NCBI GenBank assembly: GCA_964597815.1
Contig: CAZQZN010000002.1
Span: 82,679 to 146,678, forward strand
Origin: an uncultured bacterium
GTDB lineage: Bacteria > Margulisbacteria > WOR-1 > JAKLHX01
DNA length: 64,000 bases
Direction of reading: 5' to 3'
Positions within the stretch are counted from its first letter, which is position 1. The number at the start of each line of letters is the position of its first letter. This document shows positions 19,033-59,307 of this stretch, piece after piece. The translations under genes were made by a program, and so were the position numbers. The notes beneath the pieces are model-generated. The model was not told the DNA's origin. It did no database searches and saw only the letters and a program-made list of their open reading frames with translations.

Positions 19033-19092
19033 TAACTCTACCAAATTTAAAATTCTTTACATCATATAATTGTTTTGATATAATTTACAAAA

Positions 19093-19455: not shown

Positions 19456-19459
19456 AAAA

Positions 19460-19951: not shown

Positions 19952-19964
19952 AAGGAGGAAAGCA

Positions 19965-22291: not shown

Positions 22292-22294
22292 AAA

Positions 22295-23929
22295 ATGTTT
22301 GGTTTTAGAGAAAAAACAGGCAAAAAAGAGAGCTTTATTGGTGTAAATATCACTTCAAATGTGATAAATATCACATCCATAAAACAAGATGGGCAAAAAG
22401 TAATCGTCCAAAGTTTTGATACAGTCGAATTGCCTTTTGGATTAGAAAAAGAGAAAATCGACAATTTTATTTTAGAAACGCTAAAAAAATACTTTTCAAA
22501 TGTAAAATCACCAAAACCAAAAGTTTTTTCATTAATTTCAGGTCCAGATGTAATCATAAGAAGATTATCGCTTCCAAAATTACATCCTAAAGAACTGTTG
22601 GAAGCAATAAAATGGGAGATAAAAACTCATATTCCATTTCCCATTGAAAACGCGGCAATAAACTACACAGTTTTGGGAGAAATTCAAACAAAAGAAGCAC
22701 CAAAATTAGATCTATTAGTTGCAATCATTCCAAAAGATTATATTAAAAAGACAAATGCAATTTTTGAAAAAGCGGGAGTAATTCTTAAAGGGCTCACAAT
22801 TGCTCCATTTGCCGTATGGAATCTTTTAAAAGCTACTTCACTGTTAAAAAAAGATACAAAAACTGCTTTTGTTGATTTTGGCTCTGAGAATACTAAGGTT
22901 GTTTTCTTTGACGGAGAAAATCTTGAATTCTATAGAGAAATACCACTTGGGGGAATGCATATCACAAAATCAATGACTGGTTTGTTTGTTGCTGACAAAT
23001 GGCAGATGAACTTAAATTATTCGCAAGCGGAAGAATTGAAAAGGAAATTCGGGATCCCAGACGAAAACACAGAAGAAGTCACTGATGAAGGCATACCACT
23101 AAAACAAATTTATCAAGTAATTCGCCCAACACTCAGAAGATATATAAACGAAATATGCAGATCTTTTAATTATTACAAAGAACAATTTTCAAAAACATCG
23201 ATTGATAGAGTCATAATATCTGGAGGTGGCTCAAAATTAAAAAACCTTGACGCCCATCTTGCAGCAGAACTTGGAGTAAAAATTGAAAAAATTGAAAATC
23301 TACTAAGTGTTGAGAAAGGACAACTTATAAAGGACTCAAATGAATTGTTTAACGCAATACCACACATAGCAATGGCAATTGGAGCAGCTCTTTCACAGGC
23401 AAAAGAAATGAATTTTATTGGAAAATCATTTGGGACAGGTGGTTTAACGAGCGCAGAATCATCTCAACAAAGAGTTTTGATGCCACAACAGATGGGCAGC
23501 GTGATTATTTTAATTTTGGCAATCGTTTATATTATCGCAATCTTTGCATTTATAGGAAACTTAAACAAAACAATTAATGAATACGAACTAAAACTTAAAA
23601 ACCAACGTATACTGCTTATGAATCTCAAAATGCTTAATGAAAAACGCGATATTCTTGCAAAAATCGAAGCCCAAAAAAACTATTTAAATCCTCCTATTGC
23701 TGAAATATCAAATCTTTTGCCAAAAAAAGCATATTTAAAAACTTTGTCTTTTAATAACACAACAAAACAATTTTCTATTTCAGGAGTTTCTGAAAACATG
23801 TATTCCATTGGGGAATTTTTGAAAAAAGTAGAATCGTCTGGATTTTTTTCTGAAAGCTCGTTATCAGAAGCAAAAAAAATTGATGACAAACATTATTCTT
23901 TTTCGATGACATTTAAGTTGAAGATATAA
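22295..23929 (+). CDS. pilMN: PilM-PilN fusion protein (actin-like ATPase-fold PilM fused to PilN)
   Basis: 544 aa. The N-terminal ~370 aa have the PilM/FtsA-like fold (IISGGGSKLKNL). This is followed by a TM helix (VIILILAIVYIIAIFAFI) and a PilN-like coiled-coil/periplasmic domain. Confidence 0.75.
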   Translation: MFGFREKTGKKESFIGVNITSNVINITSIKQDGQKVIVQSFDTVELPFGLEKEKIDNFILETLKKYFSNVKSPKPKVFSLISGPDVIIRRLSLPKLHPKELLEAIKWEIKTHIPFPIENAAINYTVLGEIQTKEAPKLDLLVAIIPKDYIKKTNAIFEKAGVILKGLTIAPFAVWNLLKATSLLKKDTKTAFVDFGSENTKVVFFDGENLEFYREIPLGGMHITKSMTGLFVADKWQMNLNYSQAEELKRKFGIPDENTEEVTDEGIPLKQIYQVIRPTLRRYINEICRSFNYYKEQFSKTSIDRVIISGGGSKLKNLDAHLAAELGVKIEKIENLLSVEKGQLIKDSNELFNAIPHIAMAIGAALSQAKEMNFIGKSFGTGGLTSAESSQQRVLMPQQMGSVIILILAIVYIIAIFAFIGNLNKTINEYELKLKNQRILLMNLKMLNEKRDILAKIEAQKNYLNPPIAEISNLLPKKAYLKTLSFNNTTKQFSISGVSENMYSIGEFLKKVESSGFFSESSLSEAKKIDDKHYSFSMTFKLKI

Positions 23930-23938
23930 GGAGATAAG

Positions 23939-24838
23939 ATGAACAGAGCCTCGTGGCAAAAAATTTTGTTAGTGATATTGTTTTTTGCGGCAATAAGCTG
24001 GATTTCATATAACTATCTGCTAAAGAGTAAATTTGAAGAGCTGTCCAAACTCAAAAAATCTTTCGAGGATTTAAACGCCGAAGTATCTTCTTTGGGGGAA
24101 AAGAATGTTCAACTTGACACTGAGTCAATAAATAAAGAAATTGCCAAAAGATTAAGCGAAATAAGTGAAAAAGCTCCAAGCGAAGTCGATCTTCCATATA
24201 TCATCGAAAAGTTTATATTTGAATCTTTAAAAGGGCTTGACATAGAATATACATTTGTTCAGCCGCAACAAGCAGTAAAAGAAGATTCTTTCAAAAGAGT
24301 ACCAATAAATATTGATATATCCGCAAAATTCGAACCGCTTACCCAATATATTCAGCGTTTAGAAAATATGCCTTTCACCATAAGAATCGACAATATGGAT
24401 ATTTCAAAATCGCCGGAAGTATTAGATAAAAACGGGCAGAAAATAGAGGATTCACAAACCTTAATCGTTAAGCTAACGATATCTCTTTTTGCTATGCCGG
24501 GAGGAACTTCTACTCTCGGATCAGTTGAATCAACACCAAATATTTCACAAATACCATTAAATAACCCATTTTTTGAGAATGAGTTTTCGTCCAAAGAAGT
24601 GAATATTAGTGCGCAAAAATATAAAACACCTGTAAAAACAAAAAGAACAAGGCCAAGAAAAATTTATCCAATTTTAAAAGGAATTTACAAAGGCGAAACG
24701 ACAAAAGCTTTCATAAATGATAGCATATATGGAGTGGGAGATATTATTAACGGTTACATTATTACGCAGATTGCTGATAATTTTGTTGTTCTAACAAAAG
24801 ATGGGAAAGCATACACACTAAAATTAGGAGGAAAATAA
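23939..24838 (+). CDS. PilO-like protein, possibly fused to a PilP-like C-terminal beta domain
   Basis: 299 aa. N-terminal TM plus coiled coil (PilO-like). The C-terminal IYKGETTKAFINDSIYGVGDIINGYIITQIADNFVVLTKDGKAYTLKL resembles the PilP beta-domain. Confidence 0.55.
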   Translation: MNRASWQKILLVILFFAAISWISYNYLLKSKFEELSKLKKSFEDLNAEVSSLGEKNVQLDTESINKEIAKRLSEISEKAPSEVDLPYIIEKFIFESLKGLDIEYTFVQPQQAVKEDSFKRVPINIDISAKFEPLTQYIQRLENMPFTIRIDNMDISKSPEVLDKNGQKIEDSQTLIVKLTISLFAMPGGTSTLGSVESTPNISQIPLNNPFFENEFSSKEVNISAQKYKTPVKTKRTRPRKIYPILKGIYKGETTKAFINDSIYGVGDIINGYIITQIADNFVVLTKDGKAYTLKLGGK

Positions 24839-24839
24839 T

Positions 24840-26144
24840 ATGAGATTGCGAATTTGCATTATTTTGCTTGTTTTAGCAATAATTCTCCAAAATGCTGGCA
24901 TTTCTCAAGAAAAAAAAATATCTCTCAATCTTTTGAACGCTCCTTTAAATACTGTCATCTATGCCCTTGGAAAAGAAGCTGGGTTAAATATTGTTGCTTC
25001 AGACAAGATAAAAGGAAAAGTGACAATAGCAGTTAACGATGTAAGCGCATACGATGCTTTGGTTGCAGTTTTAAACGCTTCTGGCTTTGGATATAAAAGA
25101 GACGGCAATATACTGCAAATTATCGTGCCTGAATCAAAAGCGCTTTCAAAAGGGGAACCGCTTTATACAAAAAAAGGTTTTGTCACAAAAGGATTTATGA
25201 TAAATAATCTTGCCCCAGCGGATGTCGAAGAAACTATCAAAAAAATGGAATTTGCTAACACAAGAATACTTTCTTCTAAAGGTTCAAACCTTTTGGTAAT
25301 AGAAGCTCCTGAAAACATTATCTCTGAAATTGAAACTGTAATAAAAAAACTTGACGACTCACCAAAGCAAGTTTTGGTTGAATCACAAATAATTGAAATC
25401 ACTGTCGGTAACAGCGCTGCGCCAGATGTTCTTGGAACACAGGCAAAATATGTTGGCTCAACTTATGATTTCCAAACAGAAGGACTGGCAAATCCGGCAA
25501 CAGCTGGAACTCCCGGTTTTTATGCTCATGTAATAAGGGGCAATGCAGAAGCTTATGTTGAAACACTGGAAAATAAAGAAGGATTTAATCTCTTGGCTCA
25601 TCCAAAAGTTGTTGCAATATCTGGAAAGCCGGCAAACATAATTAGCGGTTCAAAACTTGGATACAGGACAACAATTACTACACAAACTGGAACAATACAA
25701 AATGTAGATTTTTTGGAAGTAGGAACAAAACTCTCTTTTGTGCCATATGTAAATGATGACGGTACAATCAGAATGGATATACATCCCGAAGTCAGCGAAG
25801 GATCGATAACTACTGACGGGCTCCCTCAAAAACAAACAACAGAAGCTACAACAACAGTAATTGTAAGAGATGGAGAAACAATAGTTATCGGCGGGCTTAT
25901 TAAAGACAAAACAAGAGAAATTGAAAAAGGAGTCCCAATAATTATGAATATACCAATTATCGGCAACTTATTCAAAAGAAAAGAGTTAACTTGGGAGAAA
26001 AAAGAGATAATAGCGGTAATAACACCTCACATAATCACCAATGAAAAGATAAAAAGCATGCAATCTGAAGCAGAAGAACTAAAGAATAAACAAAAAGATT
26101 CAAACATAGGCAAAGAACCGGGGATATTTTGGTGGATTAAATAA
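24840..26144 (+). CDS. pilQ: Type IV pilus secretin PilQ (short form)
   Basis: 434 aa. Signal peptide. C-terminal secretin domain (VIVRDGETIVIGGLIKDK...GVPIIMNIPIIGNLFKRKE...IIAVITPHII). Confidence 0.85.
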   Translation: MRLRICIILLVLAIILQNAGISQEKKISLNLLNAPLNTVIYALGKEAGLNIVASDKIKGKVTIAVNDVSAYDALVAVLNASGFGYKRDGNILQIIVPESKALSKGEPLYTKKGFVTKGFMINNLAPADVEETIKKMEFANTRILSSKGSNLLVIEAPENIISEIETVIKKLDDSPKQVLVESQIIEITVGNSAAPDVLGTQAKYVGSTYDFQTEGLANPATAGTPGFYAHVIRGNAEAYVETLENKEGFNLLAHPKVVAISGKPANIISGSKLGYRTTITTQTGTIQNVDFLEVGTKLSFVPYVNDDGTIRMDIHPEVSEGSITTDGLPQKQTTEATTTVIVRDGETIVIGGLIKDKTREIEKGVPIIMNIPIIGNLFKRKELTWEKKEIIAVITPHIITNEKIKSMQSEAEELKNKQKDSNIGKEPGIFWWIK

Positions 26145-45159: not shown

Positions 45160-45777
45160 TTAAGTTTGTTCAATCTTCCGAACAATTCCAAAAATATTTG
45201 AAATGTGCAATGGCCCAAAATGCCTGCTATCATACATACTGTTTCTATTATCTGCCAAAACAAAAAGATGGTATTTTGGTATTCTTAATGGGCTCATATC
45301 TTTTAGAGTTCCCAAAGTGTTATATGGTTCTTCTAATATTGAATCGTTTATAAATATACGGCCATTGCTAAATGATATCTTTTCTTTAGGAAAACCTATA
45401 ACCCTTTTTATATACCCGAGATCGTCAATAGGATTCCAAAAGCATATTATTTCAAACCTTTTAGGCAATTTTGGATCAAAAAAACCGCCTAAATACTTAA
45501 CAAAATCATAATAAACTCTATCACCCTCCTTTACATTTGGAAGCATACAAGTTCTTTCAATTAAAGCGTGGCTGCCTTGATTAGGAACATTACAGTATGC
45601 TCTCTGAATGAATTTATACACCAGCCCTTTGATTTCAACATTGGGTCTTAAAATTATCCCATCATCGCTAGTTTTTCTTGCCTTATCAACCATCTTTAGC
45701 GCTAATGGATATCTTCTTTGAACAAAAGAAATAGGAACAATTTTTCTAACCAATGAATTAACAATATTTGAAAACAT
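45160..45777 (-). CDS. S26-family signal peptidase I homolog (atypical, no N-terminal TM anchor evident)
   Basis: 205 aa. Box D IKRVIGFP (Lys) and box E LADNRNSMYDSRHFGPL are present. Box B is interrupted (GSHALIERTCMLP). The N-terminal 40 aa are not hydrophobic. Confidence 0.65.
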   Translation of the reverse strand: MFSNIVNSLVRKIVPISFVQRRYPLALKMVDKARKTSDDGIILRPNVEIKGLVYKFIQRAYCNVPNQGSHALIERTCMLPNVKEGDRVYYDFVKYLGGFFDPKLPKRFEIICFWNPIDDLGYIKRVIGFPKEKISFSNGRIFINDSILEEPYNTLGTLKDMSPLRIPKYHLFVLADNRNSMYDSRHFGPLHISNIFGIVRKIEQT

Positions 45778-45902: not shown

Positions 45903-47015
45903 CTAGTGAGTCCCGTTATTTTTATCTATTTCAAGTTCAAGCATCTTTTTAGCCATTTTTGGCGTAAAGTTAATCAATTGACTTTCATTGTTCCACCATC
46001 TACGGGGCCACCAGTGAATGTAATTAAGATTGTTGCCGTCAACTTCAATTCCATTATTTGCAAGTAGAGTTCCTAACACTTCTGAAAATTTTTGTTTCTT
46101 TTTATAAATTTCAAGTCCCTCATAATCATTGCCAAGCAACTTTTTCTGTTTTAAAATTTGTTCTAATTCAGATCGTAAATAACCATATTCTTTTAAATTA
46201 AAAATATCATCTAATTTCACATATTTTCTAAGATTTGAAAAATACTTAAGCGAAATTATTTTATTTCCATCAATATCTTTTGTTTCATCACTTAGAAACC
46301 GGTCAATTATCGGCTTATTTAGTTTGGAAGTATCAAGATTCCAATTGTTTTCTTTTGATAAAAGCTCTATGACCCCCTTTATTACAAGAGGTTTATTTTC
46401 GTCCGAAATATCAGCAAAACCAGATTCTGGATATTCTTCCCCCATTACTCTTGTTAAGGCATTTTGATATTTCGACGTTATAAGTGATTGAATTTCTTTA
46501 AAAACTCCTCGGTTTTCATCTTTATTTAAATCATCAAATGAAATTTCAAAACTGTCTTGCAAAGTAGATAGAATACTATAATCATTTGAAGAACCTTTAT
46601 TATCAACGGTTTCCGTACTCGTAGCAGCAGAATTTTTAGAAAATTGTTCAGGATTAGCGTTGCATTGATCTTCAATAGAAGTTTCTTTTTTCACTTCACT
46701 TGATTCAGTATCAGAAGCGGTTTGTTTAACTTGGACAGAAGCCTTTTTGCATTCTTTTAATGATTCAACATCAATTCTTAATTCCATTCCCACTTTCAAT
46801 TTTTTGGGATCTATCCCACCGTTGTCGGATTGAATTTTTTTCCACATCATCTCAACATTCAACGATTTGTCTCTTAAAATGAAATCCTTCACAGCCCTTG
46901 AAATTTCATAAAGAGTATCCCCTCTCTCAACTTTTATCCTATATTGCCCATTATCCTGAACAATTCTTGGCCCTATTTTATCTGATGTATTTGCAACCCA
47001 GCTCATAATTATCAT
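45903..47015 (-). CDS. LysM-domain protein (N-terminal LysM, C-terminal region unknown)
   Basis: 370 aa. YRIKVERGDTLYEISRAV...LNVEMMWKKIQSDNGGIDPKKLKVGMELRI fits the LysM consensus. No signal peptide. Last gene of the giant-protein operon. Confidence 0.55.
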   Translation of the reverse strand: MIIMSWVANTSDKIGPRIVQDNGQYRIKVERGDTLYEISRAVKDFILRDKSLNVEMMWKKIQSDNGGIDPKKLKVGMELRIDVESLKECKKASVQVKQTASDTESSEVKKETSIEDQCNANPEQFSKNSAATSTETVDNKGSSNDYSILSTLQDSFEISFDDLNKDENRGVFKEIQSLITSKYQNALTRVMGEEYPESGFADISDENKPLVIKGVIELLSKENNWNLDTSKLNKPIIDRFLSDETKDIDGNKIISLKYFSNLRKYVKLDDIFNLKEYGYLRSELEQILKQKKLLGNDYEGLEIYKKKQKFSEVLGTLLANNGIEVDGNNLNYIHWWPRRWWNNESQLINFTPKMAKKMLELEIDKNNGTH

Positions 47016-47027: not shown

Positions 47028-50000
47028 TTACACTCCTAAAGCAGGATTGTAATGATAATAACTTTGATCAATTCTGTGATACGCCAAAATTTTATCGTCA
47101 GATAACAACTGTGCCATCTGTGGAGTAATATATTTTACATCATATTTTGTCGTTGTGAAAAACCCGGACAACCCCTTGTTTTTGGTTTTAACTTCTTTAT
47201 TGTTTGCAGACAGCAATAATCCAATCGCCTGAGATATTACAGCAGTAAATACATCATCTGACAAAGAGTCAATGTCAATATTAGAATCTAACCCCATATC
47301 TTTTAATGCCCACACCAAAGCCCCTTTTCTTTTAAGGATCTCAATAAGTTCTGAAGAAATATTTTGGTAGTTTCTTATCTGATTTACTGCTATCGTTGCA
47401 TCTTTAATGCCTGCTAATTCTTTAAGCGAAATGTTTGGCTTTATCAACTGTTGGCTTTCAAAGATATCATACAGAAATTTTACAACTACGAAGTTAAAGG
47501 AAATTAGATCTTGATCTGAAATTTGCCAATCTTTCTCTTCAGCTAATTCCTTTATAGCAAAACCTACAACAGTTGCAAATTTTTGTGGGTCAGAATTTTC
47601 AAGTTCCTCAATTGTTTTTAAGCCAAATTTTTCAAGGGCTTTTTCTAATGCACAAGAATTAGTTAATGCTTGTTTAGTTTCATCCCAAAGTTTTTTATAA
47701 CTTTTCAGTGTATAAATGTTTACATCATCTAAATTTATACCAATTCTTCTTAGAAAAGCAATTTCAGCTGGACTTTTCTTTTTGGATAAATTTGAAAGAC
47801 TAAAATAATTATTATAGAAAGCCTCCATAATAACGTTCGTATCACTTGCATTTAAATTTACCAGCATTTCCCTTGTTTCTTCAGGCAGATGTTCAAATAT
47901 AAATTTATTTGCTTCTTCTAAAAATTTTTTGTTTTCGGCAATCATATCTTCTTTTGTTATAACAGGAGAGATCCCCGTTCGTTTCCAAAATTCATCGGGA
48001 GAATATTTGTTTGCCAGAGATGGATCTTTAAAGTATTCATCCATCATATTTCTTACAATCAAATTTTCATTGGAATCTATCATTTTCACAAACTTTTGAA
48101 CAGTGCCAGAATTATAAACCAACGGCAAACGGTTTTGAAAAGTTTCTCTTTCTCCGCTTTGTTTTGATACAAGCCATCTCCAATTAGGACAAATTTTGTC
48201 AATATATTCTTCCTCAGTATAATCCTTTCTCCAAGCGCCTTTTCCAAATAATAAATTTAAATTTTGCATCTCTTGCCCAACAACTTTTTCTGTTGTGCCC
48301 TGAACCAATGTGACGCCTAAATATGTTGTGTCCTTATTTTTGTCGAGTGTATTTATAGTTGTACCCAGAATATTTTTATACCCAAGCCGTGAAAGAAGAA
48401 TTATATCTTCAGCATTAAAATTGAATGCCTTAACTTCTAATTTGCTTGAAATTTTTTGTAAAATATCTATTGCTTCCCTTTGATCTGTTATAGCTGTTCC
48501 ACCAGTATTAATTGTTCCAGATATCCATCCTCTAAGAGAATTTTTGACTCCAATTAACTTATTGCTATTTTGTTCATTTTTTGATATATCATCTAAGATT
48601 TCAAGAATCTTGTTTTGCTGATCAATAGTCTGATAAAAAACTCCTCCTAAAAACCCTATTCCGCCAGCAGTAATAGCAATCGGAGCAATTGATAATGCGG
48701 CGGCAGAAAAGCCATAAGTTAAAACCCCGGTTCCAAGACCAATTCCACCACCTCCAGCAACAGAGGAAACAAATGAAAGTGTATAATCTTTCACATTATC
48801 ATCAGTTGTACGGCCATTATTAAAACCATTCCTCGCAGCAAAGCCAGCAGAAGCTACTGTAGCAAAAACAGCTCTGGGTGAAATTGCCTTTGAAAAAGCT
48901 TGTGGCAATAGTTTTTCAACAGTAGAAGAAGCTATTGCTGATGAAAATTTGGATTGAATTATATTAGAAATATATCCAGACAATGATGAAATATGTTCAA
49001 TTGCCTGTGGATTTGAAAACAAATATTGAGACAACATATTTAAATTAGATAACCCATCAATATATTCAATCTTGCCTTCTGAAAATTGTTTTACTTTGCC
49101 GTTTTCTCCTAAATACTCCTCATTTAGCCAATTTATCAATGTTGCCTCAAAAGCTTTTCTGGAAGCCATATTTATACCTACGCCGGCAGATGTCCTTGTA
49201 ATAAATTGAGCAACCTCATTATTAAACGGAATCTTCAAAGTAGCTAATAAAATTTGTGGTGCTTCAAACAACATATTTGATACAGAGCCTTGAAGCATTT
49301 TAACAGTCATCATTTTGTAATAATATTCCCTCAAATATGGATTATTACTTGCCATTAAATCTTTATTCTTTTTGACATTTTGATCATAATATTGAGTAAT
49401 CAGCGGATCAACATCACTCTCAGCCCAAGTTATTGCATCATCCAACAATCCAGAAACAGCCATTGCCGCCAAATTAGTTCCTGTAAAATTAATTTTTTTG
49501 ATAACAGACGCTTTTTGCCATAGCTCCAAATTAGAATAATTTGTTCCCCAAATTGAGGCGCTAATATAATCTTGAATTAAATTGTCCCTTGCCGCAAAAA
49601 ATGCTCCTCTGATTGCAGATTCCCATGCCCTTTCAAATGATTGAATCCAATAATCCTTCGTTTTTATATTGCTAAAACCATTATTATATAGTTCCGGTAT
49701 TAAATTAAAAACCAGTAAATCCATTGCAAATCCCATCATGCCACCTGTATCAATTGATCTGGAAGCATCTTTTGCAATTGAATCACATAGGCCTCGTATT
49801 TTTGTGCTCATATTTTTTACTCTTTGACGAAAAGTCAACTTTCCATCGCCTTCAACTTGTTCAGTAGGAAATAAAAAACTAGTAGCAAATTCAGCTAACA
49901 CATGTGAATTTTTTCTTCTATCTTCTTCAGTCATATCGGAGAATTTTTCTCTGTAATAAATCTCAAAGATTTCATGCACAACAGCGCTGGCCAATCGTCT

Positions 50001-53000
50001 TTGGCCTTTAATTGTTAACTCCCCATTATTTATGTCAACTGCAGATTCTCTTAAATAGATTGTATAAATATTTCCTTCTTTAATATAAAAAGCATCGCCT
50101 TCAATACCCAATTTTTTGAAATCCTCATCAGTAAGCAATTTTACTGAACCTATTTTTTCATCAATATCTTTTGGTAAAAATTTGGCATCAGCAGCTTTTA
50201 ACCCATCCAAAAGCATTTTCACCATTTCAAATTTTTGAGGATCGTTAACTGGCGTAAGAGACTCTATCTTTTCTATAGGAACTTTTTCCCCAGATTGCGC
50301 TCCATCTGATTTTCGCTCTCCTTCTGGATTTTTCCCGGCAGCAATTTTTTCTACATCAGTTTCTGTTGCACCTGATCTTTTTTGCTCATCTAAATTAGGT
50401 TTATTCTTAAATTGTTCAACATCTTCCTTGCTAACAACCAACTTAATTCGATTAAAAACTCTGCCCAGATTTGACGTTCTATATAAATATTTAAAAAGTT
50501 CCTTCTGTATATTTTGCATCATTTTTTGTTTTGCAGTATTAATTGTTTCCTCAAAGATCCTTAATGCTTCCGCTTCACTTTTTTCGCCAACAAATTTTGA
50601 GTTTTGAAAATCTTTAAGTGCTTTATCAATATCCTCCATGTAAATTGCATAATGTTTTCTTAAAATTTCCTGAACTTTGTACTGCCAATAATCAACATTA
50701 GGATTTAGAGAAGGAGTGTTTGCATTTTTATGAAAAGACGGGTCGTTGCCAAAATAATTGCTATAAATTTCGAACAGCTTTTTTGAAATAACCTCTTTAG
50801 CAGTTTCCACATCTATACCTTGAAGTTCTTTTAAATCAACTGTCCGGCCGCCGAGCAATTTCGAAAATATAGTCTCAAGCTGTTGTCGCTGCTCCAAATT
50901 TATTATTTGAGAATTTTCTGTTAAGTTACACTCTTTTAATATTTGTTCCGTGCTGACTTCTGAAAACGTTTTAACAAATTCTAAACCTTTCATAGATGCG
51001 TCATACAGCTTTTTATAATCTGCCAAATATTTTTTGTTTATATCATATAATCTATTTAAAATTACTATCGCTTTTAATGCTTTTTCCCTGTGCCTTGCTA
51101 GCGCAATATTAACAAGATTATCTATAGCTTCTCTTGCTTCTTTTGTTTTTCCTTCTCGCGAAAGATTATCTATAGCTTCTCTTAGTATTCTCCTTTCGTC
51201 CTCTGTTAATATTGAATATATATAATCTTCTGGTGAAGAGTAAACAATTGAAGAGCCCCTATCTCCTTGTCTTCCACTTCTTTTAACTTTTTGTGTAGTC
51301 CATCTTTGAGAAGAATCCAACTCGGTTGTTATTACGTGCAAACCGCCATTACTTTTTGAATTGTCGTAAAGTTTTATATTATCCAACAGTGTTTCTATTT
51401 CTCCTAACTTTATATCAGTACCTCTGCCAGCAGTTGTTGCAACCGTAATAACATAAGGTTCACCTGCATTTTCAATTATTTTTTGTCCCTCCTGTTCAAC
51501 ATTTTCAGCCGTTAATACCTGGATTTTTATTTTTCCTTTCTCACCTTTATTTAATCTTTCTTCGATGAGTTGTGCTATTTTTTTAGCCTCATCAATTGTA
51601 GACGCTGCTACTAGAATCGGTCTCCCTTTTTTAGCTGTTGAAATCGCGTCATCAACAATAGCGTTCATCTTACTTTCGCTATCCGAAAAAAACTTTGTTG
51701 GATTTCTATCAACAGAAACAAACAAACTTTTCAATCTTTTCAATCTTTCAGATATGTCCCCATTTTTAGGGCTAATTTCTCCTTCAATTTCTTTTACAAT
51801 TTCATCTATTAAACTCTTAGTGAGATTAGGATCCCCAGTACAATTGATTATCTTTATATTTTCTAAAGGATCATCAATTAATTTTTCTACACTATTTTCT
51901 TTGCTTTGTATGCGTTGCTTTATATATTCTTTTATTTCTTTTTTCACAACGTCAATTTTTGATTTGTCAGTTAATTCGAATTCCTTCAAATAGTTTGGTA
52001 ATTTTGCTAATTGTGCATCAGAAAGATAGCTTCTAATTATTTCCCAATCTTCAATTAATGTGCCTGAGAAGCCCCCAATTCTCTCGTATTGCTCTAAAAA
52101 ACCTTTAATTACTATTGATGCAAGAATCTTTTGAGGAGGGACAATTTTCAATCCCTCAACAAGTCTAATTGCTTCATCCATTCCATCTTCCCACCTCATA
52201 CCGTGCATAGGGTGCCCTTCATCGTTGATAATTATTATGTTACCCCCCTCAACTTTATATTGATATTGTTTAGAAAGAGGACTATTTGGGTCGTTTTTTA
52301 TTATATAAGCTACTGCAATATTTTCGATTCTATTAATTTCTTCAACCAAACTTCCCGATTTGGAAATTCTTTCCTTTAAAAATTCTTTCCCTTTATCAGT
52401 CAATTTCCCCTCTTTATCAATATACTCCTTACTAATTTCACCATTCTTAAGAAAAAGTTTCTTAAAATTTTTATAAGAATTTTTCCAAAGTTTTTCGTAT
52501 TGGCCTTCAAGTATCTTTTGAGTAACGGGATTTAATTCCAATTGTCCCCCTGAAACTATAAAAGGTGTTGTTGCTTTATCAATCAACAAACTATCTGCTT
52601 CATCAACGAGAATTGCCTTGTTTTTTGCATCAATTATCTCTGGTGGTATTTCCCCCGAAATTGCATCAAAAATCAATGTTTCTGCTCCAACAACAATTGG
52701 ACATTTATAAGCTTCAATTTTCTCTTCAAGAGACATGTTGCTTGTAATAATGGCAAAATCTTTACCTTTTACCAACCCCATCCTTTCAGCTTCACCTGCC
52801 CAATCCCTTACTAATGCATCATTTGAAGTCATAACATGAATGCCTTTTCCTTGTTTTCTAAGATGTTTGGCAAACAAAACTCCAATTATAGTTTTCCCTT
52901 GACCACAATCAATATTCAGAAAAGAATTTTTCCCATTTTCTAATGCTTTAAGTGCTTGAATCTGATTATCATGTAATTCAACAATAGGTTTCCCATTTTT

Positions 53001-56000
53001 ATCTTTTGGCACTAATGACTGCCAGACTTTTCTATCTTCATCATCAATATGAGGAGGATCTATAACAGATTTTCGGATTTCATTTTCATCAGGAGTGGTT
53101 TTAAAATCTACACTTTTTAAAGTTGATTTTTTTAATTGTCCTAATTGGTCTTTTATTTTTTCATTTGAATCATAATCTATAGGCAAATACAAAACTGCTG
53201 GCTGTTCCGAATGAATATTTGATGCTTCACTCGTTCTTAACTGAACAGCTGGATCTTTTATGCCTTCTAAAAGCCTTATTTCAACTATTTTCACAACAAC
53301 ATCATTACCAAATTCATCCCTAACAACTAATTTAAGAGAATTGTCATTTGAATCATAAAACTGGCTCAATATTGATTTCCCATTCTTTGTATCATATAGT
53401 AAATTTAGAAGTTTAAAATTAGCGCTTAAAGATCCCTCACCAGTAGAAGCAACTTTTGAAATGTCGCCATCAATCAATATAATAACGCCATTGTTGCTGT
53501 TTTTGTCAACATCTCCCTTATTTTCAACAAAACTTTTCGTAAAGATTTCTTGTTCAAATGTAAAAGATGAAGCAGATACACGCAATGATGCTGCGGCTTT
53601 TTTTGTTGTTTCATTGGCTTCTCTCCTCAAGTTTATTCGCTTTTTAAAATCACTTATATGATGCCGAGACCTGTTTGCTGCCCAATCTAAAGAATAATCT
53701 AATTTGGCAACAACTTTAGAAGCAATTCCATTAGATTCATACGCCTTATTATATAGAAATCCAATAGGATTAATAAAAGTATAATAGGGTACCTTGACCA
53801 AGCTACCAACTCTTGTTTTTGCAATTTTATTATAAATTTTTTGTTCAAATCCAATCCCCGGCAATCCTTTAACATAGTTTTCTATGAATGGTATTTTGCT
53901 GAGTAAACGAACTACTTCAGTATAGGGTTGAATTGTTCTGCCCCAAATCGAGTTGTAACCACCCATCATCGTGAAAAAATTAGCAGCCCAAAACATTCCT
54001 AAAAATGTAGATATATTTCCTTCTTTTAATTCCTGAATTGACTGCATATACCAAAGCGGCGGATATCTATACAAAAAGAAAGCTATTGGAACTTTTACAA
54101 GTGAGCTGGAAATTTCAGACAAAGATTTACGCCCCAATAAAGCTTTTGTAATATCCGAAGCAGCAGAAATTGGTAAACCAAGAAATATATAATATGGTAT
54201 AAGTATTCTCATTTGAACTTGCATAGCAAATATTTGTTTCGGCACCTCACCCCAATTTTTTTGTAAATCATCATAAATAGCTTTCATCGCAGAAATTATT
54301 GGATGGTTCCGATCTTTTTCTGATAATTTATCCCAAATTTGCTTAAAAGTTACTGGATCAAACATTTGAAAATAATGGCCAAAAAAACCGGAACGGTTCA
54401 ATCCGTTTTTTATATTAGAGGAAAATGTATCGCCGAAACTAATACTCTCGCTTTGTAATAGTTCTTTTCTGTATTCTAAAAGAACCTTATAGATATCATC
54501 TTTTGGCTTAATATCCAATGGTTTAGAATAAGAATTTTCATCTAGGTTTTTCCCTATAATTGAAATACAATTACCCAGTTTATCCATTAATTCATTTGGA
54601 AAGCCAATTTTTTCAGCAAGGTCTTTCAATAACAATAAATCTTCATAAGTCAACTTATTTAATGAATCTGATTTTTTATTAGGAGACAAATTTAAACAAA
54701 GAGTTTTTAAGTCCGCCACAACAGAATTTGGATCATATTCTTTGAATATACTTAAAAAATTGTTTAGCCCTATTATTTCAAACAGACTATGGCCTGTCAT
54801 TTTGATATTTGGCATATCAAAATTAAAAGATCCATCTTCCAACTTATAAGTGAACATTATTACACTTGAAATAGCTTGTTTAATATCATTTATTGTTTTT
54901 ATTTGACTCTCATTTAAACCAAGCCCTTCAAACTCCGATGTCGTCAGGTTTAGAGTGGCAAATCCTCTCAACTTCCATAATTCATTCAATTTATCATTGC
55001 CCATATCAGAAATGATTTTATCTGCATTCTTAAAAACACAAATCATGTCTTGAAAGCTTCGTTTGAATCCAAAATTATCAGTAATGTTTATGCCAAAAAG
55101 ATTTTTGTTCAGTTCAGAAGCAATCTTTTCAATGTAGTTTACAAAATTACCGCTGGATATTTTTCCGCTTAACCAGTTGTAAAGATCAGGAGTAATTGTA
55201 TAATTTTGCAAAAAGTCATTTATCGCATCCCTTTGAGCAATTAACGATTGTTTCTTTTTTTCGCCTAAATTATTCTTTTGTAATTGCTGATTGATGTCTT
55301 CCAGTGTTCCTAAAAGTCCTGTTTCTTTAGCATAAAGGTTTTTCAATGCTATTACTTGATTTTTCTCCGCTACTAAAGTTGGGGCATTTGAAATGGGCGG
55401 ATCAACACGCCACCACTCGTTTCCAAATTCAACTGGTATATGATTAGTAATTTTTATGTAGTTTAACAAAGGAGCAAACACGTCGGGATGAGCTGTTAGT
55501 TTGTCAATATTAAATTCAGTTCCATCTTCAAATTTATTAATAAACTCTAATATACTCTTCGATTCTTCTTCCGATAATCCAACTTCAACATCAGGTCTTA
55601 TTGTCCAATAAACCAAATTCATCTTATCTTTATATGGAGATTCTGATAAAGAACTAATGTGTTGTTTAAAAGCAATAAGTTCATCGTTATTGAAAACAAT
55701 TTTCTCTTTTTCTCCTTTATTCATTCCGACTTGCAAAAGTTTGTTTAAAACGTTCTTGATTTTTTCTTCTCTACAATTTTTTATGTCTTCAGAAATTTGT
55801 TCTAACAATAATTCATCTGCGCTTAAATCATAATGAACATAAGGTTTATTAACTTTTAATTTTTCTGCCAAATACGCTATATCTTCTTTTGTTAAGTAAT
55901 TTGGGAAAATATTTGCTGTATTAGGAGAACTAGGAATATTTATTCCTTGATCTTTGAGAATTTTCCTAAATAAAGATAATGGAGCTATCAAACTTGTCTG

Positions 56001-57677
56001 CTGTTGTGTATGAGTGCTGATTGTTGACTCACTCTTTATTTCTGGATCAGGAACAACCTTTACATTTTCCGGATCTATATCCGAAGGTCTAATAGGATTG
56101 AGTGTTTCTAGATCTATTATTATCGTAGCATTACTTGACTTCTTTAGCTGTTCAATAGGCCCTACTTTTTTAGGATCAAACGCAAGGTATATTTGAGGTG
56201 AGTTAATCATGCTAATTAAAAAGTTATAATCCTCAGGTGATATAGTTCTTGGGTTGGCATCATTATCACCCACATCAATTGTCAATATTTTTTCCAATCT
56301 ATCGTATCTTGTCTTGTTTTGTGGATCAATATTTCTTAAATAGTTTATTATTGCGGAATTAATATTTTCATAGTTTAGCCCACTTATTTTCTTCTTCATT
56401 TCTACTGCCAAATCCGAAGCAAAAAATCTTGAATAAACAGTATATCTATATCCTTGGACATTCTCTTTGGAGTATTTTTGAAGTTCTTGGACTAATTTAT
56501 CATTCACTTCTAACAATAAAATCGTTTCATTCTGTGAATTGCCTCTTGAAGAAGTTAAAAAATCTCTCTTATTTTCAGAAATAAAACCCAACAAAGCAAA
56601 GGCAGTTTCATTATCAAATTTGCCATCAATTTCATGTGAAGGATGCAAATAAACAAATTTAGTATATGGGGATTTAATGCTTTTAAGAATTTTCTGAATG
56701 TTTTTAACCCACTCCTGACTTTGAGATAAATTAAAACCAGCATATTTTATATCAACTTTTTCATTTTTTTCATTATCCTTCTCAACGATTGACACACTTA
56801 AAATTAAGGCCCTATCGCTTTTAAAAAAACCAAGCAACTTATTAAAATCTTCTTCAGGATTTCCTTCAGAGTTTGTCTTTTTATATAATTCAATCATTCT
56901 TGGTTTCGCTGATTGTAGATAGTTGACACAAGCGTCCTTCCCTTGTTGAAATAATTTCTCAAAAGCTCTCTTTTTTATTTCTTCCAATTCTATTCCAGCA
57001 CTAATTTTGCTTCGAATTTCATCAGGTATATTTGTATCGTTTAATAACTTTTTAACTTCATCTATTTTCCCCAACTCATGAAGTTGAGCAATCAATATCA
57101 TCATCATTTTATTGAATGATTCTTGAGTAATCTTCTTTCCATTTGAATATTCCTTCAATTTTTCTATCGCTTCGTTTATCCCTTTATCATCAGCTAACTT
57201 CATAATCTCTTTTTGAGTCTCCAAATCATTAATGCGATTATTGATAAGTTCCTTACCATACTTTAACAGCTTGTTTATTTTTTCGTCTGAAAGCAATTTT
57301 TTCAGTTCTGCAATGAAACTATCAATACTTTGATCATCAAATTTTTGAGATTTTATTTTTGAATCAACATAAAGCAACTCATATTGTTTTCTACCATCTT
57401 CAGTCAAATAATAATCTGGATAATTTTTAAATATTTCCTCTAATAAATTTACTACCTCATTATATTTGTGGGAATTATATAATTCACCTACAAATCTTAG
57501 TTTGCTTGTAATTTGTTCCTCGAGAAACTCAAATGGCCTTTCTATAGAGCTTATTCCACCAGATTTGATCGGTCTTTCGTTAGAGGATGGAGGGGTAGAT
57601 ATTTCTCTTCGATCACCTGGCTTTGGGACAGCAGGGGGTAAATCAAAACTTTTATTTACTTGTGATATCCCTGTCAT
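47028..57677 (-). CDS. Giant (3549 aa) multidomain protein with an internal complete SecA-like ATPase core (NBD1-PPXD-NBD2-HSD)
   Basis: Single uninterrupted ORF. Residues about 1560-2250 carry SecA-like motifs. These are Walker A NIDCGQGKT, GKGIHVMTSNDALVRDW, Walker B/DEAD-box region AILVDEADSLLIDKATTPFIVSG, a PPXD-like segment (GHPMHGMRWEDGMDEAIRLVEGLKIVPPQKILASIVIKGF), GFSGTL, NBD2 ATTAGRGTDIKLG and GGLHVITTELDSSQRWTTQKVKRSGRQGDRGSS. The flanking regions of about 1550 aa and about 1300 aa have no recognised domains. No N-terminal signal peptide. Confidence 0.85.
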   Translation of the reverse strand: MTGISQVNKSFDLPPAVPKPGDRREISTPPSSNERPIKSGGISSIERPFEFLEEQITSKLRFVGELYNSHKYNEVVNLLEEIFKNYPDYYLTEDGRKQYELLYVDSKIKSQKFDDQSIDSFIAELKKLLSDEKINKLLKYGKELINNRINDLETQKEIMKLADDKGINEAIEKLKEYSNGKKITQESFNKMMMILIAQLHELGKIDEVKKLLNDTNIPDEIRSKISAGIELEEIKKRAFEKLFQQGKDACVNYLQSAKPRMIELYKKTNSEGNPEEDFNKLLGFFKSDRALILSVSIVEKDNEKNEKVDIKYAGFNLSQSQEWVKNIQKILKSIKSPYTKFVYLHPSHEIDGKFDNETAFALLGFISENKRDFLTSSRGNSQNETILLLEVNDKLVQELQKYSKENVQGYRYTVYSRFFASDLAVEMKKKISGLNYENINSAIINYLRNIDPQNKTRYDRLEKILTIDVGDNDANPRTISPEDYNFLISMINSPQIYLAFDPKKVGPIEQLKKSSNATIIIDLETLNPIRPSDIDPENVKVVPDPEIKSESTISTHTQQQTSLIAPLSLFRKILKDQGINIPSSPNTANIFPNYLTKEDIAYLAEKLKVNKPYVHYDLSADELLLEQISEDIKNCREEKIKNVLNKLLQVGMNKGEKEKIVFNNDELIAFKQHISSLSESPYKDKMNLVYWTIRPDVEVGLSEEESKSILEFINKFEDGTEFNIDKLTAHPDVFAPLLNYIKITNHIPVEFGNEWWRVDPPISNAPTLVAEKNQVIALKNLYAKETGLLGTLEDINQQLQKNNLGEKKKQSLIAQRDAINDFLQNYTITPDLYNWLSGKISSGNFVNYIEKIASELNKNLFGINITDNFGFKRSFQDMICVFKNADKIISDMGNDKLNELWKLRGFATLNLTTSEFEGLGLNESQIKTINDIKQAISSVIMFTYKLEDGSFNFDMPNIKMTGHSLFEIIGLNNFLSIFKEYDPNSVVADLKTLCLNLSPNKKSDSLNKLTYEDLLLLKDLAEKIGFPNELMDKLGNCISIIGKNLDENSYSKPLDIKPKDDIYKVLLEYRKELLQSESISFGDTFSSNIKNGLNRSGFFGHYFQMFDPVTFKQIWDKLSEKDRNHPIISAMKAIYDDLQKNWGEVPKQIFAMQVQMRILIPYYIFLGLPISAASDITKALLGRKSLSEISSSLVKVPIAFFLYRYPPLWYMQSIQELKEGNISTFLGMFWAANFFTMMGGYNSIWGRTIQPYTEVVRLLSKIPFIENYVKGLPGIGFEQKIYNKIAKTRVGSLVKVPYYTFINPIGFLYNKAYESNGIASKVVAKLDYSLDWAANRSRHHISDFKKRINLRREANETTKKAAASLRVSASSFTFEQEIFTKSFVENKGDVDKNSNNGVIILIDGDISKVASTGEGSLSANFKLLNLLYDTKNGKSILSQFYDSNDNSLKLVVRDEFGNDVVVKIVEIRLLEGIKDPAVQLRTSEASNIHSEQPAVLYLPIDYDSNEKIKDQLGQLKKSTLKSVDFKTTPDENEIRKSVIDPPHIDDEDRKVWQSLVPKDKNGKPIVELHDNQIQALKALENGKNSFLNIDCGQGKTIIGVLFAKHLRKQGKGIHVMTSNDALVRDWAGEAERMGLVKGKDFAIITSNMSLEEKIEAYKCPIVVGAETLIFDAISGEIPPEIIDAKNKAILVDEADSLLIDKATTPFIVSGGQLELNPVTQKILEGQYEKLWKNSYKNFKKLFLKNGEISKEYIDKEGKLTDKGKEFLKERISKSGSLVEEINRIENIAVAYIIKNDPNSPLSKQYQYKVEGGNIIIINDEGHPMHGMRWEDGMDEAIRLVEGLKIVPPQKILASIVIKGFLEQYERIGGFSGTLIEDWEIIRSYLSDAQLAKLPNYLKEFELTDKSKIDVVKKEIKEYIKQRIQSKENSVEKLIDDPLENIKIINCTGDPNLTKSLIDEIVKEIEGEISPKNGDISERLKRLKSLFVSVDRNPTKFFSDSESKMNAIVDDAISTAKKGRPILVAASTIDEAKKIAQLIEERLNKGEKGKIKIQVLTAENVEQEGQKIIENAGEPYVITVATTAGRGTDIKLGEIETLLDNIKLYDNSKSNGGLHVITTELDSSQRWTTQKVKRSGRQGDRGSSIVYSSPEDYIYSILTEDERRILREAIDNLSREGKTKEAREAIDNLVNIALARHREKALKAIVILNRLYDINKKYLADYKKLYDASMKGLEFVKTFSEVSTEQILKECNLTENSQIINLEQRQQLETIFSKLLGGRTVDLKELQGIDVETAKEVISKKLFEIYSNYFGNDPSFHKNANTPSLNPNVDYWQYKVQEILRKHYAIYMEDIDKALKDFQNSKFVGEKSEAEALRIFEETINTAKQKMMQNIQKELFKYLYRTSNLGRVFNRIKLVVSKEDVEQFKNKPNLDEQKRSGATETDVEKIAAGKNPEGERKSDGAQSGEKVPIEKIESLTPVNDPQKFEMVKMLLDGLKAADAKFLPKDIDEKIGSVKLLTDEDFKKLGIEGDAFYIKEGNIYTIYLRESAVDINNGELTIKGQRRLASAVVHEIFEIYYREKFSDMTEEDRRKNSHVLAEFATSFLFPTEQVEGDGKLTFRQRVKNMSTKIRGLCDSIAKDASRSIDTGGMMGFAMDLLVFNLIPELYNNGFSNIKTKDYWIQSFERAWESAIRGAFFAARDNLIQDYISASIWGTNYSNLELWQKASVIKKINFTGTNLAAMAVSGLLDDAITWAESDVDPLITQYYDQNVKKNKDLMASNNPYLREYYYKMMTVKMLQGSVSNMLFEAPQILLATLKIPFNNEVAQFITRTSAGVGINMASRKAFEATLINWLNEEYLGENGKVKQFSEGKIEYIDGLSNLNMLSQYLFSNPQAIEHISSLSGYISNIIQSKFSSAIASSTVEKLLPQAFSKAISPRAVFATVASAGFAARNGFNNGRTTDDNVKDYTLSFVSSVAGGGGIGLGTGVLTYGFSAAALSIAPIAITAGGIGFLGGVFYQTIDQQNKILEILDDISKNEQNSNKLIGVKNSLRGWISGTINTGGTAITDQREAIDILQKISSKLEVKAFNFNAEDIILLSRLGYKNILGTTINTLDKNKDTTYLGVTLVQGTTEKVVGQEMQNLNLLFGKGAWRKDYTEEEYIDKICPNWRWLVSKQSGERETFQNRLPLVYNSGTVQKFVKMIDSNENLIVRNMMDEYFKDPSLANKYSPDEFWKRTGISPVITKEDMIAENKKFLEEANKFIFEHLPEETREMLVNLNASDTNVIMEAFYNNYFSLSNLSKKKSPAEIAFLRRIGINLDDVNIYTLKSYKKLWDETKQALTNSCALEKALEKFGLKTIEELENSDPQKFATVVGFAIKELAEEKDWQISDQDLISFNFVVVKFLYDIFESQQLIKPNISLKELAGIKDATIAVNQIRNYQNISSELIEILKRKGALVWALKDMGLDSNIDIDSLSDDVFTAVISQAIGLLLSANNKEVKTKNKGLSGFFTTTKYDVKYITPQMAQLLSDDKILAYHRIDQSYYHYNPALGV

Positions 57678-57690: not shown

Positions 57691-59307
57691 CTAACTATTT
57701 AAAAATTTCATCGCTTTCTCGTAATCATCTAATTGGCCTTTAAATGGGTTGTCAAAACTGTTAAAATAAGCGCTTAACTTTTTGAAAAACTCAGAATTGT
57801 CTTTATTTAATTCAACTAAAGATTTCATACTTTCAGTAATTTCACTATTTTTACTTTTTGCATTTTCTCTATCGGCTTCAGGTTTATTAGAATCATTCAA
57901 AATTTTTAAGTTTTCATTAAATTGGCGAATCAAACTTACGAAATTTTGCACACTTGCATCAACAGATGTAGTTTTTGTCACTTCAGTTTTTAACTGCTCA
58001 TACATTTTTTGTAGTTCTTTGGCATATGGATTATCAGCAAACCTTATCAAATTATAAGCTGCTTCAAATTTCAAGTTAATTTTGTTTTCATCTAATAAAC
58101 CTTCTTTTTCTAAAATCTCAAAGAACCTTTTAACTTTTTCTTCTGGATTTGTCAACTTGTCAAACTCATCCTTGTGTTTTTCTCTAATTTCATCAAGTTT
58201 GCTCTCTCCAATTTCATTAATTAAAGAGTCCATTACATAACTAGAAACTGTACTATTCATCAACGATGCCAAAACAATTTTTGTTTGTTCATCTTTTGAA
58301 AGTTCTGAAATTTTTCTACCATCAATGAGCGGCGCATTACTTCCAATATTTACTATTAAATTGAAGTACTTTTCAAATATATTTTTCGTGATCTTATAAT
58401 CACCAAGAGTAAAAACGATAGGAGAATTATCAATATAAGGATTATTTTCAATTGGGTTGGTTGGATCAATGGCCTGTGGTCTAATTCTTGATGTTGTCAA
58501 ATTATCTTTCGCAGCATTAGCAACAGATGAATCATTAGCAGTTGATCCAACTAGCAAACTTCTATTATCAGTTGTTACTTCTATCCCATATAACTCAAAA
58601 ATATTCACATTTATTTTGTTTGATAAAATTAGTGCCGTTAGAATTGTCTTTTGATCGCTTTCTTCAATATCTTTGAAATCTTTGGCTTTTAATCTCTGGC
58701 TTATTTTATCTAAAATCAGCGAAATGTTTGTATTATTGCTGCCCAAAATCTGAATGGCTTTTTGATAAGGATCACCGCTTAGTTTAATCCATTGCTGGTC
58801 AATGGCCGACTTTATACCTTCATATTCAGAGATGCTTATTTTTACATAATTTCCTCCACTTTTGTTATAAAGTTGTGCGGTTCTTACCAAATCTTGTGTA
58901 TTGCTTTGGTCTAATCCGATTAATTGCATAAAACCAACAACATTGCTGAAAAACAGCTCTATCTCTTGTTGTGTCAGCTTTCCATCTGATTGAGAATCCC
59001 TTTCAGATGGAACTTTCATTCCGCTGTCTATTAAATCAAAAAGTTCTTTTGAAACATTTGCGCCAGCATTTCTTAAAGATTCAAGAGTAATGTTATTTTG
59101 ATCTATTTTTTCGGCATTTCCGCCAAAAATTGTTATGAAAGAGCCAATAATCGAAGTTTCATTCCCTTGTTTGCTTTGAGCAATAGCTTCTGGCCTACTA
59201 ACATCTTGTGGTACTATAACTGTTGTATCGCGTTCAAAAGATGGTGTTTGGGAAACATACGTACCACTATTAACTGTTGGTGCTGATTGTATAGCTTCTG
59301 CTACCAT
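57691..59307 (-). CDS. Hypothetical protein (538 aa) with an EF-hand-like Ca-binding loop
   Basis: No signal peptide. The loop DSQSDGKLTQQE (aa 104-115) fits the EF-hand D-x-[DNSQ]-x-D-G-x-[ILV]-x-x-x-E pattern. 13-nt gap to the giant gene. Confidence 0.55.
   Translation of the reverse strand: MVAEAIQSAPTVNSGTYVSQTPSFERDTTVIVPQDVSRPEAIAQSKQGNETSIIGSFITIFGGNAEKIDQNNITLESLRNAGANVSKELFDLIDSGMKVPSERDSQSDGKLTQQEIELFFSNVVGFMQLIGLDQSNTQDLVRTAQLYNKSGGNYVKISISEYEGIKSAIDQQWIKLSGDPYQKAIQILGSNNTNISLILDKISQRLKAKDFKDIEESDQKTILTALILSNKINVNIFELYGIEVTTDNRSLLVGSTANDSSVANAAKDNLTTSRIRPQAIDPTNPIENNPYIDNSPIVFTLGDYKITKNIFEKYFNLIVNIGSNAPLIDGRKISELSKDEQTKIVLASLMNSTVSSYVMDSLINEIGESKLDEIREKHKDEFDKLTNPEEKVKRFFEILEKEGLLDENKINLKFEAAYNLIRFADNPYAKELQKMYEQLKTEVTKTTSVDASVQNFVSLIRQFNENLKILNDSNKPEADRENAKSKNSEITESMKSLVELNKDNSEFFKKLSAYFNSFDNPFKGQLDDYEKAMKFLNS

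Follow-up and report, generated by a model that had tools for sequence, protein, structure and literature searches.

A conserved aromatic-rich hydrophobic module precedes the SecA-like core of a giant Margulisbacteria protein

SecA is normally a soluble, peripheral motor that contacts the membrane through lipid binding and through SecYEG, and canonical SecA reaches the membrane by means of a lipid-binding amphipathic helix at its N-terminus. Among the accessory SecA2 proteins of mycobacteria, Listeria and Clostridioides, the Listeria enzyme exports LysM autolysins. SecA domains have also been described within giant Omnitrophota proteins (>30 kaa; West-Roberts et al., bioRxiv 10.1101/2023.11.21.568195), which have many transmembrane (TM) helices and whose SecA DEAD and preprotein-binding domains are divergent. 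In those giants TM anchors lie just before the SecA part and are proposed to serve as a membrane anchor, while the SecA part is proposed to act as an export device; the same work lists Margulisbacteria among the phyla rich in very large genes and reports giant SecA-domain genes near genes resembling the type II secretion system (T2SS), and a 2026 preprint describes, for long Omnitrophota proteins, a cluster of 20 that share a SecA_DEAD architecture. Here we analyzed a 64,000-nucleotide stretch (the window) of an AT-rich genome (33% GC) from an uncultured Margulisbacteria bacterium (assembly GCA_964597815.1, contig CAZQZN010000002.1, positions 82,679 to 146,678). The largest open reading frame (ORF) of the window (47028..57677, minus strand) encodes a 3,549-aa protein, P0001, in which an N-terminal extension is followed by a hydrophobic module, a complete SecA-like core and a C-terminal extension with more hydrophobic blocks. 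The module is better conserved than the ATPase site, and its single most likely role, which we put forward tentatively, is that of a membrane-embedded or interfacial hairpin or re-entrant unit that tethers this SecA-derived ATPase to the membrane.

The SecA-like core (aa ~1531–2412; 50442..53087, minus strand) appears to reproduce the whole architecture of canonical SecA, as represented by the B. subtilis (6itc, 3dl8) and E. coli (2fsf) structures, and is composed of nucleotide-binding domain 1 (NBD1), a PPXD-like insert, NBD2, a long scaffold helix, and helices resembling the wing and IRA1. Pfam detects SecA_DEAD (PF07517; E 3e-23, aa 1569–1874) and P-loop_SecA (PF21090; E 7e-27, aa 1995–2161), along with a weak SecA_PP_bind match at aa 1754–1837 (PF01043; E 5.6e-4, with 20.9 bits where the gathering score is 23.5). 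SecA_SW (PF07516) and SEC-C were not detected in P0001, and no Pfam domain other than the SecA-related ones was found in it, including in five sub-regions searched at E ≤ 10. The catalytic motifs are intact (Walker A and B, motif III and the arginine finger), with Walker A (CGQGKT) at residue 1591 and VDEADS at 1691 in NBD1, and TAGRGTDI at 2082 and the arginine-finger motif GRQGDRG at 2135 in NBD2. An AlphaFold2 (AF2) model of aa 1500–2480 built from a 62-sequence alignment (pLDDT 81.7, pTM 0.80) shows a 50-residue helix after NBD2 and then five further helices; the preprotein cross-linking region is confidently modeled and superposes in full-length SecA matches. The top Foldseek matches to this model are full-length SecAs, the best target-normalized TM-scores being those of SecY-bound SecA (6itc_A, 0.75; 3dl8_A, 0.74). 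P0001 occupies 94–95% of the canonical SecA core columns, on both sides of the GRQGD motif, and 94% of the canonical C-domain columns, with the last aligned residue at ~2412; a phmmer search of the PDB with aa 2150–2480 found no SecA. Judged from the model, the SecA part is structurally complete and not a fragment. The tip of the two-helix finger is divergent, the canonical LRGYAQKDP being replaced by NSKFVGEKS, and an insertion of ~80–100 residues (aa 1893–1990, window approximately 51708–52001) with lower model confidence separates the NBD1/PPXD part from NBD2. This insertion is essentially unconserved (0.02–0.04 invariant) among P0001 and the two homologs described below.

Canonical SecA is a stand-alone peripheral protein of ~800–1000 aa, whereas the P0001 core is embedded in 3,549 aa, with ~1,530 residues before it and ~1,140 after, and P0001 scores 179 bits against the NCBIfam SecA equivalog TIGR00963, for which the cut-off is 800. 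The likeness to accessory SecA2 lies in the implied presence of a second, specialized SecA paralog with a co-encoded LysM protein that lacks a signal peptide; however, P0001 scores 112–169 bits against SecA2 equivalog cut-offs of 725–1100, SecA2 proteins are soluble, measure ~750–800 aa and, unlike P0001, have no hydrophobic modules, and neither SecY2 nor Asp genes turned up in the neighbors scanned. The Omnitrophota/Actinobacteriota giants (Archaeovorin and Dockerin types) are likewise oversized and without a classical export signal, and likewise carry a SecA DEAD and a preprotein-binding domain inside, with hydrophobic segments shortly before the SecA part. These giants are 10–30 times larger, however; their TM helices are numerous, and they include many enzymatic or adhesion domains, of which Pfam finds none in P0001. 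They are also reported to be without scaffold and wing domains, whereas P0001 retains the scaffold and IRA1 and, apparently, the wing, as indicated by AF2, Foldseek and alignment coverage. P0001 has only two to three marginal segments and one Gly/Ala block, and the pre-SecA anchors of the giants are compared with these by description only. The P0001 family fits none of the canonical SecA, SecA2 and Omnitrophota classes. The theme of a giant protein with a SecA domain and membrane anchors is already described, and the P0001 family varies that theme, as a complete SecA would here be hard-wired between two conserved hydrophobic modules. At 3.5 kaa, compared with 30–150 kaa, it would offer a compact, tractable model for the role of SecA-like domains in giant bacterial proteins, a question left by the Omnitrophota work, and it could also show how a permanently tethered SecA motor behaves.

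The hydrophobic module spans aa 1140–1275 (~135 aa; 53853..54260, minus strand) and was delimited in a three-way alignment in which variable, indel-rich linkers bound it on both sides; it therefore behaves as an autonomous unit. A first-pass annotation of this DNA, made from the letters and a list of ORFs, had proposed two to three membrane-inserting or re-entrant helices at 53950–54250, about 350 residues upstream of the SecA core in an otherwise hydrophilic protein rich in Lys, Glu and Asn. The span is right within about 10 nt at its low end, the three peptides it quoted are all present in the translation, and the module segments lie 320–410 residues from the core, whose onset by Pfam is at aa 1566–1569. 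The description of the remainder also holds (K 9.8%, E 7.9%, N 7.1%, 27% charged), as does that of the region as Trp/Tyr-rich: aa 1149–1246 are 11% charged and 17% F/W/Y, with W+Y at 9.2% compared with 4.6% for the whole protein. On the Wimley-White scale the most apolar 100-residue stretch of P0001 is aa 1150–1249.

Three segments make up the apolar part of the module, all on the minus strand. Segment 1 (aa 1158–1176, ILIPYYIFLGLPISAASDI; 54150..54206) begins the peptide ILIPYY...ALLG (aa 1158–1182, window 54132–54206) and contains the conserved motif LRILMPYYIYLGLP, with two invariant prolines inside it. Segment 2 (aa 1194–1215, VKVPIAFF...SIQ, VKVPIAFFLYRYPPLWYMQSIQ; 54033..54098) contains the conserved motif LYRYPPLWYxQ. 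Segment 3 (aa 1220–1246; 53940..54020) is a 27-residue charge-free run that includes the peptide FLGMFW...SIWG (aa 1225–1246, window 53940–54005) and carries the near-invariant sequence GMxWAxNFFTMMGGYNSIWGR, extended in the alignment by TxQP. The charge-free run at Segment 3 is 26–27 residues long in all three proteins, the second longest in each; that at Segment 1 is 16–25 residues, and Segment 2 has no uncharged stretch that reaches 20 residues. The motif [ILVK][ILV]P[YIFLA][YIFLA] occurs in exactly four copies in P0001, all in or just after the module (aa 1159–1299, window ~53781–54203); this is probably no true repeat, because copies 2 and 4 are unconserved in the homologs, and we rejected it as one. 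Internal duplication of the module within P0001 was likewise rejected, with no match better than E 1.5.

P0001 forms a singleton cluster in a collection of 15 billion proteins. A phmmer search with aa 1000–2199 against 1.84 billion representative proteins returned 5,269 matches, of which only two reach beyond the SecA motor, P0011 (3,369 aa) and P0012 (4,207 aa); the remainder are ordinary SecAs of ~800–900 aa with 30–35% identity, and the module itself was found in P0011 and P0012 alone. By BLASTP, aa 188–2420 of P0001 align with P0011 at 33% identity and aa 412–2405 with P0012 at 28% identity. When the three-way alignment is divided into 50-residue bins over the full length of the protein, aa 1201–1250, within the module, has the highest invariant fraction (0.46), compared with 0.36–0.40 for the Walker A bins and a family average of ~0.12–0.16. 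Both homologs keep the hydrophobic segments, which are better conserved than any other part, so that the family does not lack them as the first-pass annotation had allowed it might. The contigs of the homologs have 45.6% and 42.4% GC, compared with 33% here, and conservation of the module across hosts of 33–46% GC therefore argues against a compositional effect.

This bears directly on the proposal that the apolar run is a compositional accident without specific function, arising in an AT-rich genome with an excess of codons for F, I, L and Y. Composition-preserving shuffles do yield at least one equally apolar 19-mer in 87% of cases, as that proposal would have it. Three such 19-mers within 100 residues were seen in 0 of 2,000 shuffles, however, and the module is conserved at both higher GC contents and holds the most invariant bin. 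A compositional artifact, which we consider extremely improbable, is effectively refuted by the conservation data.

No counterpart of the module was found elsewhere in P0001 or in 147 canonical SecAs, no Pfam match at E ≤ 10 and no match in a profile search of the PDB. Plasmids and phages searched by tblastn with the module yielded no match, and nothing was found with the module alignment in genome, metagenome and viral contig collections or with the family-specific motor alignment in metagenome contigs. If not membrane-bound, the module still represents a conserved domain, new and very rare, that is joined to SecA. The sequences NFFTMMGGYNSIWGR and HDNQIQA are suited as seeds for mining further family members.

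Hydropathy scales were calibrated on the other 47 ORFs of the window, with thresholds for a classical TM helix of at least 1.6 on the Kyte-Doolittle (KD) scale and at least 0.68 ("certain") on the Eisenberg scale in a window of 19–21 residues. In the helices of bona fide membrane proteins of the window (AcrB, the SNF symporter, T2SS-F, pilins and ABC permeases), KD values over 19 residues (KD19) are 2.0–3.2 and the Wimley-White sums lie between −10 and −18. The highest KD values of soluble enzymes are 1.7–1.8 (MetRS, OTCase, M17 peptidase), and their Wimley-White sums are no lower than −5.9. On the octanol version of the latter scale, Segments 1–3 sum to −8.86, −9.55 and −7.35, and are the three most favorable 19-mers of P0001, with Segment 2 the lowest. 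These sums surpass those of all soluble enzymes of the window and the 5th percentile (−6.2) of the 147 canonical SecAs. Only 5 of the 147 have any comparable apolar window, and the statement of the first-pass annotation that SecA itself has no such segments holds for the other 142. The hydrophobic moments of the three segments are very low (0.02–0.23; 0.08 for Segment 3), indicating non-amphipathic segments and therefore not the amphipathic helices expected of a small soluble bundle. Segment 3 in addition shows helical periodicity in its pattern of substitution (variability moment 0.38 at 100°, permutation p = 0.045), with variable positions that are all apolar and an invariant face of G/N/T/G/N/S/W.

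Several observations weigh against placing the module in the membrane. The KD19 values of the segments (1.53, 1.15 and below 1.15, with Segment 2 at no more than 1.15) are under the 1.6 cut-off, below all 70-odd real TM helices of the window and within the range of its soluble enzymes; the Eisenberg means over 21 residues (0.53, 0.36 and 0.57 for Segments 1–3) are in the "candidate" range but below 0.68. The segments thus look soluble-like on a scale that penalizes Trp and Tyr and membrane-like on one that rewards them. Segment 2 holds internal R/K residues and the conserved YPP break, and looks like an interfacial or helix-break element and not a membrane span. According to low-confidence AF2 secondary structure, the conserved GLP, YPP and MGG motifs break the apolar helices into pieces of at most 17 residues, too short for a classical span; the AF2 model of aa 1060–1350 itself, built from the three-sequence alignment, reached a pLDDT of only 36.9 and was discarded. 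The putative 48-residue outside loop (aa 1177–1224) carries six K/R residues, and the positive-inside rule therefore gives no support. Extreme sequence conservation is atypical of a simple anchor, and the conservation statistics are thin, resting as they do on three sequences. The module is too weakly hydrophobic to count as a classical membrane-spanning segment. The proposal of two to three such helices is partly supported: the module is conserved and non-amphipathic and includes a charge-free Segment 3, and its association with the membrane is plausible, but all three segments are under both thresholds for a classical TM helix.

Many of the same observations would be explained if the module lay outside the membrane, where it would form the buried, aromatic interior of a soluble helical domain or a hydrophobic interface with another part of P0001 such as the SecA clamp, with co-encoded partners or with other copies in an oligomer. 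KD and Eisenberg values in the soluble-protein range, the short helices cut at conserved Pro and Gly, and the lack of support from the positive-inside rule all fit such an arrangement. Invariant Pro, Gly, Asn, Ser, Thr and Arg abound in this most conserved region, as is typical of a functional core or interface and not of a lipid-facing anchor. Such helices could also be buried against the ample surface that a multidomain protein of 3,549 aa offers. Set against this are the near-zero moment and 11% charge over ~100 aa between variable linkers, since a free-standing 135-aa domain would expose large apolar surfaces; the wholly apolar variable face of Segment 3; Wimley-White sums beyond those of the window's soluble proteins and 95% of canonical SecAs; and the presence of a second, clearer TM-like block in the family (see below). 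On this balance we judge a location outside the membrane rather unlikely, though it is a serious competitor.

Attachment at the membrane, the reading we tentatively prefer, would involve a ~135-residue all-helical module in or on the lipid bilayer. Segments 1 (aa 1158–1176) and 3 (aa 1220–1246) are proposed to dip into or cross the bilayer, with the Trp/Tyr-rich Segment 2 (LYRYPPLWY) positioned at the interface. This arrangement would keep the N-terminal 1,150 residues as well as the ATP-dependent motor in the cytoplasm and would therefore need no signal peptide; none is present in P0001, P0011 or P0012, and two hairpins with the rest of the protein cytoplasmic is therefore the most economical topology. 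The module would in this way substitute for the lipid-binding N-terminal amphipathic helix of canonical SecA. Membrane insertion is plausible; like it, the topology and a tethering role are inferred. The TM anchors just before the SecA domain of the giants described by West-Roberts et al. offer a precedent for such attachment. In a few otherwise normal SecA matches (P0082, P0113, P0055 and P0108) a hydrophobic C-terminal tail takes the place of the SEC-C zinc motif, and the C-terminal extension of the 1,416-aa P0108 contains a strong TM helix (KD 2.42). SecA–anchor fusions therefore recur sporadically.

The second hydrophobic block lies in the C-terminal extension and had gone unremarked in the first-pass annotation. 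It is a Gly/Ala-rich, charge-free block of 54 residues (aa 2965–3018, YTLSFVSSVAGGGGIGLGTGVLTYGFSAAALSIAPIAITAGGIGFLGGVFYQTI; 48624..48785, minus strand) with a KD of 1.84 and an Eisenberg value of 0.76, and corresponds to the longest charge-free run in all three proteins (54, 74 and 35 aa in P0001, P0011 and P0012, respectively). It passes the classical TM thresholds in P0001 and P0011, and by its predicted hydropathy is the most TM-like region of P0001, probably a helical hairpin. Being more hydrophobic than the module, this hairpin is proposed to provide a second attachment point. Between it and the core are a conserved island (aa 2510–2585; 49923..50150, minus strand) and a weakly hydrophobic segment (aa 2642–2660; 49698..49754, minus strand; KD 1.33), the latter with counterparts in P0011 (aa 2787–2805, KD 1.54) and P0012 (aa 3196–3214, KD 1.83). 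Within the island, an invariant AV(V/L)HExxE motif (aa 2565–2572, window 49962–49985) is found downstream of the core in all three homologs, with no Pfam match, and could be a candidate catalytic or metal-binding site.

A different explanation for both hydrophobic elements is that P0001 is exported as an effector or toxin and that the module and the Gly/Ala block form a latent element inserting into a target-cell membrane after delivery. Secreted membrane effectors carry bilobed hydrophobic domains, which the 54-residue Gly/Ala block resembles. The hydrophobicity of such a protein would be kept just under the threshold for targeting to the producer's own inner membrane, and the P0001 segments (KD 1.15–1.84) do fall under the helices of the window's membrane proteins (2.0–3.2). 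In Krampen et al. 2018 (PMC6110835), the TM domains of membrane effectors secreted by the type III and the type IV secretion system (T3SS/T4SS) are described as moderately hydrophobic, and the likeness to P0001 is that of few segments, slightly less hydrophobic than the producer's inner-membrane helices. The absence of a signal peptide, the extreme rarity and patchiness of the family, its location in an accessory gene block, the AbiE and Fic-like genes beside the giant gene at the locus of P0012, and SecA-like helicase-related domains noted in Amoebophilus effectors (PMC3482391) are also consistent with export to a target. Compared with T3SS/T4SS effectors, however, P0001 is far larger, contains an ATPase motor, and has no chaperone-binding domain found in it and no recognizable toxin, eukaryotic-like or eukaryote-interaction domain; a 3,549-aa substrate with a fully folded ATPase would be hard to export. 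Nor was a cognate system found: no T3SS, T4SS or type VI secretion system genes were seen in the window, only a cluster resembling a T2SS or type IV pilus (T4P) ~21 kb away. We consider an effector role improbable.

The genes on either side of the giant gene have counterparts at the locus of P0011. Beginning 12 nt after its stop codon is a gene for a 370-aa LysM protein (45903..47015, minus strand), and a LysM gene also follows the giant gene at the locus of P0011, a JGI metagenome contig (L001, 20185–21090), the two products being 41% identical over the LysM region. Neither has a signal peptide, which is odd for a peptidoglycan-binding module. Both LysM proteins are possible clients of the SecA-like motor, and the one co-encoded here, without a signal peptide, is a testable candidate substrate. 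Upstream, 13 nt from the start codon of the giant gene, is a gene for a hydrophilic orphan of 538 aa (57691..59307, minus strand). An orphan precedes the giant gene at all three loci (594 aa at L001, 8165–9949; 716 aa at the P0012 locus, L003, 1238–3388), and those of the window and L001 are homologous (BLASTP E 4e-22 over the N-terminal ~250 aa). The L003 orphan shows only a weak FDLIAHTM...EIEKF resemblance together with weak fn3-like and Por_Secre_tail-like matches, and a homolog search with the 538-aa orphan returned only itself.

These partners would supply the cargo in the boldest interpretation of the locus, in which the family is a self-contained export machine in a single polypeptide, possibly oligomeric and working without SecYEG, where a complete SecA motor stays joined to an intramembrane element of its own. 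The C-terminal Gly/Ala hairpin and the invariant polar or small face (G, N, T, G, N, S, W) of Segment 3 would together form this element, and the machine would carry the signal-peptide-less LysM protein and the 538-aa orphan across the membrane. SecY, SecE and SecG were not seen among the ORFs scanned. The first-pass annotation had likewise suggested that the protein might carry its own channel-like element, for which we found no direct support, and we regard an export machine of this kind as very unlikely.

Gene order at L001 (LPG_synthase_C, SNF symporter, the homologous orphan, the P0011 gene and the LysM protein gene) shows the same neighbors as the window. At L003 the P0012 gene is followed (16261–19750) by an AbiEii/AbiEi toxin-antitoxin pair and then by a DUF4062/HATPase_c_4/Fic-like gene, surroundings that look defense- or mobile-type, unlike the housekeeping context in the window. 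Beyond the LysM gene the window continues with a gene for an S26-like peptidase and then the arginine genes OTCase, ArgG and ArgH. The window ArgG is 70–72% identical to those of Saganbacteria, WOR-1 and Margulisiibacteriota metagenome-assembled genomes (MAGs), and one Margulisiibacteriota MAG has the same OTCase-ArgG-ArgH order without the upstream block of S26, LysM and giant genes; the block is therefore accessory, and the host is probably related to Margulisiibacteriota. A promoter and terminator scan gave counts equal to the shuffled background.

The S26 signal-peptidase-like protein is encoded two genes downstream of the giant gene (45160–45777, minus strand; Pfam E 5e-23). It has no hydrophobic N-terminal anchor (maximum KD 1.17) and carries a Cys at the box expected to hold the nucleophilic Ser (TCMLPN), while the KRVIG and DNRxxSxDSR boxes are kept. 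The T2SS/T4P-like cluster is located at 13994–26144 on the plus strand and is composed of a T2SSE ATPase with an MshEN domain, T2SSF, several pilin-like ORFs with a single TM segment, and a PilM-PilN fusion.

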